Source: Patescibacteria group bacterium
Lineage (GTDB): Bacteria; Patescibacteriota; Microgenomatia; Daviesbacterales; UBA10151
NCBI GenBank assembly: GCA_943356485.1
Contig: CALRFD010000005.1
Span: 32,103 to 96,102, forward strand
DNA length: 64,000 bases
Direction of reading: 5' to 3'
Shown here one piece after another: positions 3,921-62,102 of the stretch (the stretch's first letter is position 1; the number at the start of each line of letters is the position of its first letter). A program made the position numbers and the translations under genes. Under the pieces are notes generated by a model. The model was not told the DNA's origin and made no database searches. It saw only the letters and a program-made list of their open reading frames with translations.

Positions 3921-5528
3921 ATGCAAACTAATAAAAACAGCAATTTTAAATTTTATTTTATATCCTTTATTGCAATTTTATTAGTATCTTTTGTCGTTTT
4001 GCTTCCTTCCTTTAGATTAGCTTTTCAAGATGATGATTGGCGTGGGGTAGTACTTCCTAAAACCGATTATGCAAACGGAAGACTAATGACACCATATGGA
4101 ATTCAATTGTGGTTCTGTGGAGTTTTATATGATTTTTTTGATTCTAATTTTTATCTTTACTATATCCTATCATTTATATTAAGAAATTTAACAGCTTTAG
4201 GCATTTTGATATTCCTTTATACTATTACGAAAAACCGTTTAGCTTCTTTTTTAGGCGGCTTAATGGTAGCTGTAGGATTTAGCGGCTTACAAACTACATT
4301 TGAGACAGCAAGTACAAATGTTTATTTTGCACTGATTGGATATACTGTCTTTTTAACATCATTTTTCAAAACAAAAGACAGATTAATATTAAAACATCTG
4401 ATTATAATGGATATCTCTTTGGCCTTAGCTACTTTAGCCTCACCTGTTAGAAGCTATCCTTTGTATGCTTGGGCATTTATAGTGGATGGAATTTATTTGC
4501 TGATGCGATTTAAAAGAGAAAGAGTTAAAAATTTTTTAGTCAGGCAATCTATAATTTTAATGAGCTTTTTAATCCTTTATAAAGCAGGTATTTTTAACTG
4601 GTTTAGTTTAGATGCACCTGCTACAAATCATATTAATGATTTTGGTATTTTTATTTCGAAGGGGAAGCTTTTTCTTGAAGGTTTAGATTTTAATATCGTA
4701 CTAAATTTTATAAGAGGTTTGGGAAATATTGTTATTCCTAGTATCTGGGATAAAAGTGGGGTGATGGCAATATTTGTAGGCAGTAGCTACATAGTTCTTT
4801 TGATAGCTCTTTTGTTTTTTATATTTAAAAAAAGAGATGAAAAAATATTTTATATATTCACTTTTTTGTTTTGGCCACCTCTTCTGTATTTTTGTTATTT
4901 TGTAGTGATATTAAGCGGCTATGAAAATCTTTCTAAGGGTACGGTTGTATTGGAATCATTTCGACGTTATTTGCTTCCTCCGTTCATCGGTTTTGTTGTT
5001 TTCTTAGCAATACTTTTATCCTTGGAAAAAACTAATAAGAGGAAGCATATTTTAATAGGGTTCATTCTGCTTTTTATATTCATGCACTCATTTGCTACCT
5101 ATAGCTTTCTTAGTGAGTTGTCAAAAAGAAGAGATGGTTTTTTTATGGTGAATATATGGAAACAACTTGTAAAACTAATGCCATATTCTAGTTTAGATAT
5201 TAATAAAACAAATATATTTTATTTTGAAACTGATGGGTCAGCTAGGGCAATCTATACTTTGGACGATGGGTTTATCTTGCATGCTACAACTTTATATAAG
5301 ATTTACCCCGGGTCAATGAGTACCCCGGATGAAATTGATTCTTTTACGAAAGTATTAAGGCATACATTTTCTTTTAGTGAATTTATCTCTTTTGTCACAA
5401 AGGGTTTTCCAAATGATTCTGGACCTATTCCCTGGAAAAGGGTTTTTGCTTTCAGGGTAGAGGGTGAAAGAGTGATAAATATTAAGGAGGAAGTTAGAAA
5501 AAGATTAGAAAAAAGTTTAATTCAATAA
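3921..5528 (+). CDS. Polytopic membrane protein, function unknown (possible glycan-related GT-C-like enzyme)
   Basis: It has about 10 or more hydrophobic segments. An acidic QDDDW motif follows the first TM helix. It is co-oriented with the carbamoyltransferase gene and the following PMT-like gene. Confidence 0.45.
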   Translation: MQTNKNSNFKFYFISFIAILLVSFVVLLPSFRLAFQDDDWRGVVLPKTDYANGRLMTPYGIQLWFCGVLYDFFDSNFYLYYILSFILRNLTALGILIFLYTITKNRLASFLGGLMVAVGFSGLQTTFETASTNVYFALIGYTVFLTSFFKTKDRLILKHLIIMDISLALATLASPVRSYPLYAWAFIVDGIYLLMRFKRERVKNFLVRQSIILMSFLILYKAGIFNWFSLDAPATNHINDFGIFISKGKLFLEGLDFNIVLNFIRGLGNIVIPSIWDKSGVMAIFVGSSYIVLLIALLFFIFKKRDEKIFYIFTFLFWPPLLYFCYFVVILSGYENLSKGTVVLESFRRYLLPPFIGFVVFLAILLSLEKTNKRKHILIGFILLFIFMHSFATYSFLSELSKRRDGFFMVNIWKQLVKLMPYSSLDINKTNIFYFETDGSARAIYTLDDGFILHATTLYKIYPGSMSTPDEIDSFTKVLRHTFSFSEFISFVTKGFPNDSGPIPWKRVFAFRVEGERVINIKEEVRKRLEKSLIQ

Positions 5529-58966: not shown

Positions 58967-60157
58967 ATGAAGATTCTAATGCTTACGCCGTATCTACCCT
59001 ATCCTTTACTTACAGGAGGTCAAACCAGATCATATAATTTAATAAAGAGGCTTGCTGCTTTAGGGCATAAGATAACCCTTTTTTGTTTAGTAAAAAGCGA
59101 CAAGGAAAAAAAATATGTTGGAGAGCTGGAAAAATTCTGTGAGGAGGTTTCCGTATTCAACAGATCTGAGAGGCCTTGGACTTTAAGCAATATTTTTAAA
59201 ACAGGATTTTCAATTTATCCTTTTTTGGTTATTAGAAATTGGGCTAGCGGAGAGCGGTCGGCTATAGAAAAAAAGCTTAAGGATCAAAAGTTTGACTTAA
59301 TACATGCAGAGACTTTTTATGTAATGCCGCACATCCCTAAGACAGAGATACCGATCCTTTTGGTTGAACAAACAATTGAATATTTGGTTTATAGTCATTT
59401 TGCAGAGGAGTCGGGTAATCTGGCGCTGAAGCCTCTTTTTTATTTTGATGTTTTGAAGATGAAGTACTGGGAACTTCGATATTGGCAACAGGCGGCAAAA
59501 GTGGTTGCAATGTCAGATGAAGATAGAAGCATAATGATTTCTGAGGTATCCAGATTGAGTGTAGATATTGTTCCTAATGGAGTTGACAGTGTATATTTCA
59601 ACAAATCTATTGCCAGCCGTTCTAAAGAGCAAATAATATTATATGTCGGTAATTTTACCTGGCTGCAAAATCGGGAAGCTGTAGATATTTTGGTAAGAAG
59701 AATCTGGCCAAAGATAAAAAGCCAGTTACCTTTAGCCAAACTTTGGATTATCGGTAAAGAAGCAGAGAAATTTTTCCCAAATTTATCCGAGCAGGATATC
59801 AGGGTTGAGGAAGTTGCCGATATTAGAGAGGTTTATCAGCAGGCATCTGTTTTAGTGGCGCCTATTTATGGAGGAGGGGGAACAAGATATAAAAATTTTG
59901 AAGCCTTTGCTTCCGGGTTACCGGTGGTGACGACCAGTATCGGGATTTCCGGAACAGAGGCAAAGGATGGAGTGGAGGTTATAATCCGGGATCAACCGGA
60001 AGAGATGGCTCAGGCTGTGGTAGAACTTTTGGGAAGTAAAGATCTGTATAGTAAAATCGCCAAAAAGGCTAGAGAAATGGTTAAAAACAGATACGATTGG
60101 GACAGTATCTCCAAAAAATTAAGTGATATTTATGAGCAGCTAGGGAAAAGGGTATAG
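58967..60157 (+). CDS. GT4 (GT-B fold) glycosyltransferase
   Basis: The C-terminus has GGGGTRYKNFEAFASGLPVVTT, an EX7E-like motif. It is 396 aa. Confidence 0.75.
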   Translation: MKILMLTPYLPYPLLTGGQTRSYNLIKRLAALGHKITLFCLVKSDKEKKYVGELEKFCEEVSVFNRSERPWTLSNIFKTGFSIYPFLVIRNWASGERSAIEKKLKDQKFDLIHAETFYVMPHIPKTEIPILLVEQTIEYLVYSHFAEESGNLALKPLFYFDVLKMKYWELRYWQQAAKVVAMSDEDRSIMISEVSRLSVDIVPNGVDSVYFNKSIASRSKEQIILYVGNFTWLQNREAVDILVRRIWPKIKSQLPLAKLWIIGKEAEKFFPNLSEQDIRVEEVADIREVYQQASVLVAPIYGGGGTRYKNFEAFASGLPVVTTSIGISGTEAKDGVEVIIRDQPEEMAQAVVELLGSKDLYSKIAKKAREMVKNRYDWDSISKKLSDIYEQLGKRV

Positions 60158-60177
60158 TTAATATTTTCCTTAGGTTT

Positions 60178-60759
60178 CTATCTGATGAACACCGGTGTTG
60201 CTTGTACAATTGTCTCGTATCGTGTTACAACAGCCATAAAGTTTTTTTGATGATCCCAATTTACTATCCTGTCAAAAGTATCTCCAAGAGTTATGGCATA
60301 TTCTCTTCCTCTTGTAGTAGGAGCAAACAATTCTCGGCTATCCTCATCTGTTCTAACAATAACTAACCCAAGTCCTTCGAGAGAATATAATTCTTTAAGA
60401 AGTGGTCTTACTGAACCATCTCCTGCAAGAAAGTCGGCTAGCGATCTAGGTTGTTCGTTAGGAGCAATGGGTTCGGTTCTAGGCAATTTGTGTAATTCAT
60501 CAGTAGTATAGCTTAATGATACATGATTAAGAAAAGCATCCTGGAAAAACTTTCTGTGGCGGCCTGCTTTTAACAATTGTGCTGCATGAGATGCTTCTGC
60601 AAGAGATTCAACTACTCCTTGCTGAGTGTTTGTGTCAATAACAGCTGCAAGATCTTCAACTTGTCTGCGCGTCAGAGTACCTAATTGATCAACAACATAA
60701 AGAAGAGCATACTTACGTTCTAACTTAGGAACATTTACCGGTAGTCTTTCTTTAGGCAT
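60178..60759 (-). CDS. Hypothetical protein with atypical (GC-richer, Ala/Arg/Leu/Glu/Thr-rich) composition; probably horizontally acquired
   Basis: The track ORF is 60178..60831 from a GTG start. The first 24 codons are AT-rich like intergenic DNA. The composition shift begins exactly at the internal ATG (MPKERLPVN, 60759), so I prefer that start. I recognise no motif. Confidence 0.45.
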   Translation of the reverse strand: MPKERLPVNVPKLERKYALLYVVDQLGTLTRRQVEDLAAVIDTNTQQGVVESLAEASHAAQLLKAGRHRKFFQDAFLNHVSLSYTTDELHKLPRTEPIAPNEQPRSLADFLAGDGSVRPLLKELYSLEGLGLVIVRTDEDSRELFAPTTRGREYAITLGDTFDRIVNWDHQKNFMAVVTRYETIVQATPVFIR

Positions 60760-60827
60760 CGTATGTTTATTATAAATAGAAATATACCATTTGAAAAAAT
60801 TTAAAGCAATATAAAGTCTAAAACTAA

Positions 60828-60928
60828 CCACAACACCACAATTTGTGGACTTTCACGCACGAAAACCACAATTGTTATCCACAACTATCTCTTGTGGTGA
60901 AAGGGGCTCTGCGACAAGCTGATTGTGG
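60828..60928. promoter_or_regulatory. Cluster of seven CCACAA/TTGTGG hexamers incl. a perfect DnaA-box nonamer TTATCCACA and a 13-bp palindrome CCACAATTTGTGG
   Basis: CCACAA occurs at 60828, 60836, 60866 and 60879. TTGTGG occurs at 60843, 60892 and 60923. TTATCCACA lies at 60875-60883 and the palindrome at 60836-60848. The cluster sits in the divergent gap between the atypical gene (-) and a GT4 gene (+). Confidence 0.4.
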
Positions 60929-60992
60929 TAGAGATAAAAATAATTTACACCAGTAATTACAGTCTTTCTTAAGAAAGTATATAATTGTACTT

Positions 60993-62102
60993 ATGCGTAT
61001 CGGAATTGATGCCAGGATGTATTTAGAGTCTGGAATTGGCAGGTATATCCGTAATGTTATAAATAAGCTTCAGGAACTCGATAAGGAAAACGAGTATTTT
61101 ATTCTGCTGAGAAAAGAAGATTTTGAGAACATAAAGTTTAACAGTAATTTTCATAAAGTATTAGCGGATTTTTCCTGGTATGGAATTACCGAGCAGATTA
61201 AATTACCTAAAATATTAAATTCTCTAAAACTGGATCTAGTACATTTTCCTCATTTTAATGTGCCAATTCTTTATAAGGGTAAGTTTGTAGTTACCATTCA
61301 TGATCTAATCCATCAGCATTATCAAATGAAAAGGGCAACAACTCACGGCTTACCAACTTATAAAATTAAACAGTTAGGATATAGAGCAATTTTTAAAAAT
61401 GCCATCTCAAAATCTGTAAAAATATTAGTCCCGTCAGCTTATGTTAAAGAGTTGTTAATAGATGACTGGAAGATAGATATAGGAAAAATAGTTATTACCC
61501 CGGAGGCTGTCGATGACACTATCTTTTCGGTCGTGAACATAATGAAAGGAAAGGATGAACAGGTGATGAAAAAATTTAACATTAAATCGCCATACATATT
61601 TTATGTTGGTAATGCGCATCCGCATAAAAATGTGGAAGGGCTAATTAAGGGGTTTATCAGATTAAGGAATAAATATAAAGACCTGCAATTGGTTTTATCC
61701 GGCAGTGACCATTATTTTTGGCAGAAAATAAAAAAAGAGTTTCACTGGGAAGGAGTTATTTATACAGGATTTATTTCTGATGAAGAGTTAGTTTCACTTT
61801 ATAAAAATGCCAAGTGTTTTGTGATGCCATCATATGAAGAAGGTTTTGGAATACCTTTGCTGGAAGCAATGGCCTGCAAAACCCCGGTTGTTTCATCTAT
61901 GAGCGGATCTTTAAAAGAAGTTGGAGGAGAGGCAGCGGTTTATTTTGATCCGCATAATCTGGAAGATATGATTAAAAAAATAGAGCAGGTTTTAGATAAC
62001 GACAAATTAAGAAAAGATTTAATATCTAAAGGACAAAAAAGAGTAAAGGATTTTAGTTGGGAAAAACTAGCCAAACAAACCCTGGGGGTTTATTTAAAAT
62101 GA
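60993..62102 (+). CDS. GT4 (GT-B fold) glycosyltransferase
   Basis: It has EEGFGIPLLEAMACKTPVVSSMSGSLKEVGG, the EX7E motif. It is 369 aa. Confidence 0.8.
   Translation: MRIGIDARMYLESGIGRYIRNVINKLQELDKENEYFILLRKEDFENIKFNSNFHKVLADFSWYGITEQIKLPKILNSLKLDLVHFPHFNVPILYKGKFVVTIHDLIHQHYQMKRATTHGLPTYKIKQLGYRAIFKNAISKSVKILVPSAYVKELLIDDWKIDIGKIVITPEAVDDTIFSVVNIMKGKDEQVMKKFNIKSPYIFYVGNAHPHKNVEGLIKGFIRLRNKYKDLQLVLSGSDHYFWQKIKKEFHWEGVIYTGFISDEELVSLYKNAKCFVMPSYEEGFGIPLLEAMACKTPVVSSMSGSLKEVGGEAAVYFDPHNLEDMIKKIEQVLDNDKLRKDLISKGQKRVKDFSWEKLAKQTLGVYLK

Follow-up and report, generated by a model that had tools for sequence, protein, structure and literature searches.

An opposite-strand gene within a glycosyltransferase operon

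The stretch analysed here (hereafter the window) comprises 64,000 nucleotides of contig CALRFD010000005.1 (positions 32,103 to 96,102 of the forward strand; assembly GCA_943356485.1) from a Patescibacteria group bacterium, and carries a surface-glycan gene cluster in which an opposite-strand gene lies between two genes for family 4 glycosyltransferases (GT4). This open reading frame (ORF; 60178..60759, minus strand) runs from an ATG at 60759 to a stop codon at 60178-60180 and encodes a protein of 193 amino acids (aa) with the N-terminus MPKERLPVNV, a member of an uncharacterised family with a winged-helix-like substructure. The flanking genes are both intact and on the plus strand: GT4-1 (58967..60157; Pfam Glyco_trans_1_4 and Glyco_transf_4), the stop of which converges on the 3' end of the ORF with a gap of 20 bp, and GT4-2 (60993..62102; Pfam Glycos_transf_1), which starts divergently from the ORF at 60993. 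The surrounding genes encode a DegT aminotransferase, GT2 and GT1/GT4 glycosyltransferases, hexapeptide transferases, PMT_2, Wzy_C and Bac_transf proteins. A preliminary description of this DNA, made from its letters alone, had given the same location, strand and length for the ORF, its 20-bp convergence with the upstream GT4 gene, its divergence from the downstream one and the glycan-cluster setting, all of which are borne out by the coordinates and annotations.

On sequence grounds the internal ATG at 60759 is the sensible start. The frame extended to a GTG (to 60831) crosses a stretch of 18% G+C content (GC) that holds a promoter-like site, and DNA homology with the closest homologues ends at the coding-region borders of the ORF.

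The locus was compared with six contigs from five related Daviesbacteria-like lineages (L008; L009, GCA_030699125.1; L010, GCA_964547465.1; L011, Joint Genome Institute (JGI) 3300025323; and L017/L018). In all six, GT4-1 and GT4-2 overlap by 4 nt (ATGA) with nothing between them, in a common order of Wzy_C, PMT_2, GT4-1, GT4-2 and GT4-3 that continues, on contigs long enough, with Bac_transf, DUF4012, RecO and a tRNA synthetase. In DNA alignments with L008-L011, homology extended up to the GT4-1 stop and began again from the GT4-2 ATG, the extra segment consisting of one opposite-strand gene and the 233-bp region upstream of that gene (60760-60992). GT4-1 shared 63-84% identity with its orthologues in the five relatives when compared by protein quarter; the closest relative, L017, reached 76-84% identity in this gene, yet is without the ORF. 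Homologues of GT4-2 at 62-71% identity bear the source name Candidatus Daviesbacteria and others Patescibacteria. The gene is carried by four further contigs (L002-L005), which are from the same strain as the window (99.9-100% identity).

By this comparison, the 835-bp segment at 60158..60992 is a lineage-specific insertion, located precisely where two translationally coupled GT4 genes meet. The preliminary description had proposed an insertion into a co-directional glycosyltransferase array and had suggested looking for an orthologue at the same position in relatives; with the 4-nt overlap present in all contigs compared and the gene absent from that position in all relatives examined, the proposal is upheld. 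The segment lacks the marks of a transposon, insertion sequence or miniature inverted-repeat transposable element, no significant terminal repeats, target-site duplication, or transposase or integrase signature having been found.

Base composition and codon usage of the inserted gene

The window averages 33.6% GC; the ORF has 39.5%, more than any other of the 54 ORFs (z = +2.3). Among 582-bp windows the standard deviation of GC is 2.9%, and the ORF ranks at the 96.8th percentile of these; its value is matched in five other stretches of the window, and the adjacent GT4 gene has 38.8%. The contrast of more than 40% with about 30% drawn in the preliminary description was thus overstated, although the ORF is indeed the richest of the set. 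All of its GC excess comes from the first and second codon positions, with GC1 (0.572, z = +3.9) and GC2 (0.387, z = +2.4) at the top of the 54 ORFs and GC3 (0.227, z = -2.0) second lowest (rank 53/54). Synonymous codon choice, scored by a leave-one-out model, was at the median (rank 25/54). The encoded protein is a true outlier in amino-acid make-up, as had been claimed: the joint share of Phe, Ile, Lys, Asn and Tyr is 18% vs 35% (z = -4.5), the Kullback-Leibler divergence of amino-acid usage ranks 2/54, and the protein has more Ala, Arg, Thr, Gln, Glu and Val and half as much Ile and Lys.

The same pattern was found in the homologues. Those on AT-rich contigs have GC1 values of 0.56-0.63 and GC3 values of 0.20-0.28, whereas a homologue on a 59%-GC contig has a GC3 of 0.59; the closest homologues of the ORF protein (60-65% identity) are on AT-rich contigs. 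The GC bump is a trait of the protein family that shows up in an AT-rich setting and not a nucleotide signature of a donor, since the family is rich in Ala, Arg, Glu, Asp, Thr, Gln and Val and poor in Ile, Lys, Asn and Phe. The reading of composition as a foreign signature did not survive, as codon usage lies inside the genomic distribution (GC3 0.227; synonymous rank 25/54), and a recent transfer from a GC-richer donor is not supported by the ranks of GC3 and synonymous choice. With silent sites and codon choice native, the acquisition would be either old enough for the gene to have adapted or from an AT-rich donor of the Candidate Phyla Radiation (CPR) type. Of the earlier claim of a horizontally acquired insertion, the insertion stands on synteny, but the compositional reason given for it fails the codon-usage test. 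It is synteny, not composition, that proves the insertion at 60158-60992. For genome scans more generally, the locus illustrates that the amino-acid make-up of a family can by itself raise the GC of a gene in an AT-rich genome, and that GC3 and synonymous usage need checking before a gene is called foreign.

Among the 54 ORFs, GC3 peaks (0.365) in GT4-1 (58967-60157) and not in the flagged ORF, and the synonymous-usage score of GT4-1 was the lowest among the 11 nearby genes listed. Its GC3 is elevated over the full length, with no step in identity to the orthologues. A recombination tract in GT4-1 was discarded because neither identity nor GC3 changes abruptly along it.

A sparse protein family in variable genomic neighbourhoods

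The ORF protein gave no match to Pfam (E <= 0.1), NCBIfam (E <= 10), the phage protein families of PHROGs or the defence models of PADLOC; with family members as queries, Pfam and NCBIfam likewise gave nothing, and PHROGs and PADLOC returned insignificant matches for two homologues only (E ~0.02). A word-indexed search of 5.8 billion proteins recovered the ORF protein itself and a single relative at 60% identity, and an exhaustive HMMER search gave 47 representative clusters at E < 1e-3, 25 of them at E < 1e-10. As far as these searches reach, the family is sparse and unannotated, with about 47 clusters, mostly from groundwater metagenomes and, in all but two clusters, 183-252 aa in length. 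Conserved motifs are LxRKYxLxYL, HVALxYxxxEME and DxxAGxGPxRPLLKELYSL. Scans of viral contigs and JGI metagenomes yielded no further relatives and GTDB genomes one match, and an alignment-based word search added short contigs only. Matches to MarR/PadR models were absent at E <= 1 for the 47 family members, PDB sequence-profile searches gave no winged helix-turn-helix (wHTH) protein at a significant E-value, and nothing significant was found in the PDB with a C-terminal sub-profile. A full-length PDB profile match to a TAL effector (E = 5e-4) was set aside as low-complexity-like, with no domain passing alone.

The ratio of nonsynonymous to synonymous substitution rates (dN/dS) of the ORF against its two closest homologues (L001 and L007) is 0.13-0.26, and the ORF is a real gene under purifying selection. 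A spurious ORF was ruled out by the homologues, the dN/dS values and the confidence of the structure model described below. Two relatives of ~575 aa (P0029 and P0038; L014 6618-8348) have the family domain fused to a conserved C-terminal region of ~380 aa; no Pfam domain was found in these fusion proteins and an AlphaFold2 model, with a mean predicted local distance difference test score (pLDDT) of 37, was unusable.

The homologues have neighbourhoods of a variable or mobile type. In L007 the family gene lies between tRNA-His and a Fic gene, in L001 it abuts a ychF gene cut to its C-terminal 149 residues, and in L014 a 576-aa fusion protein follows MazE, Fic and YchF. L012 carries type IV secretion system (T4SS) genes, an M23 peptidase gene, UvrD (minus strand), the family gene (plus strand), XRE and a PLD nuclease, while in L015 the family gene is divergent from a UvrD-type helicase. 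In L006, a 59%-GC contig binned as Thiobacillus, it is flanked by phage tail genes.

The inserted intergenic region

The 233 bp at 60760-60992 form the longest intergenic region of the window and consist of two AT-rich arms (18-23% GC), each with a promoter-like site having a perfect TATAAT, around a 45%-GC core. The minus-strand site (60769..60797; TTTTCA-17-TATAAT) matches the consensus at 10 of 12 positions, and 9 nt separate the end of its -10 element from the ATG of the ORF, which implies, if the site is used, a very short leader or none. The plus-strand site (60956..60985; ATTACA-18-TATAAT) has its -10 element ending 7 nt before the GT4-2 ATG and may serve the severed downstream half of the operon as a replacement promoter; in the relatives GT4-2 has no intergenic region upstream at all. 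Across the window, a Shine-Dalgarno core of at least 4 nt precedes just 11 of 53 genes, and several genes have a TATAAT-like hexamer ~7-15 nt from the ATG. This suggests that leaderless or short-leader mRNAs are widespread in this organism, and the promoter-like signals of the insert fit the style of the host. The lack of a Shine-Dalgarno sequence before the ORF is likewise nothing out of the ordinary, only 11/53 genes having one.

The core contains seven CCACAA/TTGTGG boxes (60828..60928; 60828+, 60836+, 60843-, 60866+, 60879+, 60892- and 60923-), including a 13-bp palindrome (CCACAAtTTGTGG). Seven of the 30 copies of CCACAA in the window thus fall within ~100 bp (Poisson P ~1e-13). The CCACA core of the DnaA box is common to all seven boxes, and the array holds the only perfect DnaA box of the 64-kb window (TTATCCACA; 60875..60883, plus strand), the consensus of the host itself possibly being different; the other 22 DnaA-box matches in the window have one mismatch each and are scattered. 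The DnaA-box-like array is statistically strong and curious. As the boxes face each other, either strand of the region 60820-60935, taken singly, folds far better than shuffled sequences (-33 and -36 kcal/mol, z = -3.6 and -3.3), so that a small structured RNA or a cruciform is conceivable from the sequence; an Rfam scan of the insert gave no match.

GC skew shows no inflection at the insert, being positive on both sides and nearly window-wide. A chromosomal origin (oriC) at the array was ruled out because the skew does not change sign and the locus is absent from the five related lineages. An exact-pattern scan for the array in viral contigs found none. A palindrome-containing 23-mer had one match in the JGI metagenomes (L019 4339-4361; Ga0268281_1005567), in an unrelated organism and ~150 bp upstream of a wHTH-like ORF unrelated to the family, which by a rough, uncomputed estimate is at about chance level.

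Predicted structure and proposed role

An AlphaFold2 model of the ORF protein, built from a 47-sequence alignment, had a pLDDT of 94.7 and a predicted template-modelling score (pTM) of 0.89. In a Foldseek search of the PDB, more than 40 of the top 50 matches were MarR, PadR or other small wHTH proteins, with alignments of 52-59 columns at 1.6-2.7 A and probabilities up to 1.0, and the BFVD database gave the same picture. Judged by secondary structure, the matched part probably comprises helix 107-112, helix 118-129, a hairpin at 133-147 and helix 149-168. This ~55-residue part superposes at 1.6-2.7 A on MarR/PadR regulators such as MepR (3eco), MftR (8ylg), NadR (5aip), PecS (8yli) and LmrR (9h9y), which the ORF protein also resembles in size and in the divergence of its gene from those it might regulate. 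It differs from these regulators in having no sequence-family membership, an additional N-terminal helical region (15-100) and a C-terminal beta-hairpin. On the structural model, a role for the product as a DNA-binding accessory protein or regulator of the winged-helix type is close to an even call.

The explanation that best accounts for the locus, and which is reasonably probable given the model and the synteny, is that an acquired gene for a winged-helix DNA-binding accessory protein split a glycan operon in a Daviesbacteria-like genome. The product would have an accessory role, probably as one of those transcription regulators that accompany variable or mobile regions. With the operon cut in two by the insertion, its downstream half (from GT4-2 and GT4-3 through the gene for the Bac_transf initiating transferase and beyond) would probably be driven by the new TATAAT promoter in the insert. 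This promoter would be divergent from that of the ORF, with the seven-box CCACAA array between them serving as a protein-binding platform, perhaps for the ORF product, DnaA or both. The earlier suggestion of a regulator or a mobile-element or phage remnant is plausible in so far as it accords with the MarR/PadR-like substructure and with relatives located by tRNA-His, Fic, ychF, UvrD, a PLD nuclease and phage tail genes. The insert is a new and unnamed form of a familiar theme, in which an operon takes in a small accessory gene of the winged-helix type. Like "morons" and similar single-gene operon insertions, the insert has one opposite-strand gene with its own candidate promoter, absent in relatives, and homologues in phage or variable regions; it differs from them in the lack of a surrounding prophage and in a fully native silent-site composition.

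Several results weigh against this explanation. The Foldseek searches of the PDB and BFVD gave no match at E <= 0.001 and no whole-fold match, and the template-modelling score normalised to the query is ~0.25 for the whole protein, so that the term "winged helix" relates to a local substructure of ~55 residues. The isoelectric point (pI) of the ORF protein is 6.2, with a family range of 4.9-9.3 and most values below 7, and the tip of the predicted wing reads DEDS and is acidic, both being atypical of a DNA binder. Within the family, conservation is highest in RPLLKELYSL, the putative recognition helix. This is unusual for regulators: typical regulator families have diverse operators and a recognition helix that is not conserved family-wide. 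A CCACAA cluster was found at none of seven homologue loci or their flanks, and this, taken with the conserved helix, argues against the array as the cognate operator of the family. The number of promoter-like sites in the intergenic region was not above that in shuffled sequences. With regard to acquisition, the check for flanking direct repeats proposed in the preliminary description came out negative, neither direct (294/300 shuffles) nor inverted (91/300) repeats at the borders 60158/60992 being significant, and the only ORF of the insert has no recombinase, integrase or transposase signature in Pfam, NCBIfam or PHROGs. Patescibacterial T4SS clusters are mostly chromosomal and without a relaxase (PMC12102498), and the T4SS context of L012 is therefore no proof of a mobile element.

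The array may instead be a DnaA-box cluster, bound by host DnaA as a transcription factor or titration site, with the ORF merely its neighbour. Such clusters are known outside oriC between divergent genes in B. subtilis (DnaA-box clusters, DBCs), and E. coli has datA. The array is similar to these in its dense CCACA-core boxes with a sole perfect TTATCCACA in 64 kb and in its intergenic position between divergent genes, but most of its boxes are degenerate, six of the seven having 2-4 mismatches to the 9-mer consensus (which may not be that of the host), and the invariant trailing A of CCACAA is not in the DnaA consensus. The cluster, recognised here by its sequence, also lies in a lineage-specific insert and, being absent from relatives, is no conserved control site. 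Taken together, these points leave this alternative rather unlikely, although it deserves serious consideration.

A somewhat more doubtful alternative is that the ORF product is a local autoregulator, a dimer of which would bind the boxes (for instance the palindrome CCACAAtTTGTGG) and control both its own promoter and that of the glycan genes, making surface-glycan synthesis conditional. The winged-helix substructure, the position of the array between two divergent promoter-like sites of the same insert and the opposed orientations of the boxes, with a perfect palindrome among them, would all be expected of such a circuit. Yet the recognition helix is near-invariant while the homologue loci have no such boxes, no DNA homology to the closest relatives extends beyond the coding region, and the boxes lie ~30 bp outside both -35 elements and not over the core promoters. 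The probability left over after DnaA, the ORF product and a vestigial mobile-element origin falls to some other binder of the array.

It is unlikely, if less so than the alternatives considered further below, that the protein does not bind DNA and has a winged-helix-like module for protein contacts, as an accessory of a defence island or of a toxin. The acidic to neutral pI across the family and the acidic wing tip would agree with this, as would the recurrence of Fic, MazE, PLD nuclease, XRE and UvrD as neighbours, and a conserved "recognition" helix suggests a conserved partner. However, PADLOC gave no match, in the window the gene stands alone without a partner gene, and the structural neighbours are almost all DNA-binding wHTH proteins.

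That the insert is the remnant of a mobile-element replicon, with the ORF encoding an initiator or origin-binding protein and the array and 18%-GC stretch forming a vestigial plasmid- or phage-type origin, is very unlikely. The core of an iteron replicon consists of a rep gene, iterons of 17-22 bp, a DnaA box and an AT-rich region, and the gene, AT-rich arm and repeat array with a DnaA box found here have a resembling order upstream of a small winged-helix-containing gene; relatives of the gene also stand divergently beside helicase genes of the UvrD/PcrA type and close to phage tail genes. The repeats are, however, just 6-7 bp with no extended iteron unit, no initiator of the RepE, RepA or Pi type was among the top Foldseek matches, GC skew has no inflection, and comparable arrays are missing from the homologue loci. 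Of similarly slight and marginally lower probability is a self-contained module of a kind not previously recognised in CPR bacteria, in which the conserved "recognition" helix of a new winged-helix family targets a conserved host component such as DnaA or DnaA-bound DNA and the protein works with a DnaA-box array, as a replication-linked switch or as the origin of a mobile element; were this the case, the module would here subject one half of the surface-glycan operon to control by replication status. An ancestral gene lost from the relatives, although just five related lineages were compared and the closest is 76-84% identical in GT4-1, is the least probable alternative, as it needs an identical clean deletion restoring the 4-nt ATGA overlap in every lineage examined and the closest homologues of the gene are at unrelated loci.

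At this locus a single gene has been cleanly inserted into a conserved surface-glycan operon of a CPR bacterium, splitting the operon and apparently bringing in a replacement promoter. CPR bacteria live attached to hosts and face phage, so that altered control of envelope glycans could matter to them. The locus also draws attention to an unannotated yet confidently folding family that recurs beside Fic, ychF, UvrD and tRNA genes.

Other features of the locus and of related loci

A weak hairpin (CTAGGGAAAA / TTTTCCTTAG; 60140..60173, plus strand, -12.9 kcal/mol) extends across the GT4-1 stop into the 20-bp convergent gap; it was not significant (z = -1.3 on the plus strand, with no signal on the minus strand). 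In L010 (GCA_964547465.1), a different minus-strand ORF of 128 aa (4620-5006) lies between GT4-2 and GT4-3 in that relative only, with a weak sub-threshold match to Iron_permease, representing a second, independent small insertion in the same operon.

At the L001 locus, the truncated ychF next to the homologue P0002 (205-745) has a palindromic repeat at the break (GTCATCCTGAG...CGAAGGATC). The break could be due to an insertion into ychF or to an assembly join, on a contig that ends early. An identical 19-mer (TGTAAGATTTCAGTCAAAA) occurs ~70 nt downstream of the family gene at L015 1237-1255 and L016 948-966, two loci that are otherwise dissimilar, with inverted near-identical copies at L016 ~1033-1045 and L015 ~476-489. 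From its placement this 19-mer is a candidate cis element of that subfamily, be it an operator, an att site or a terminal repeat.
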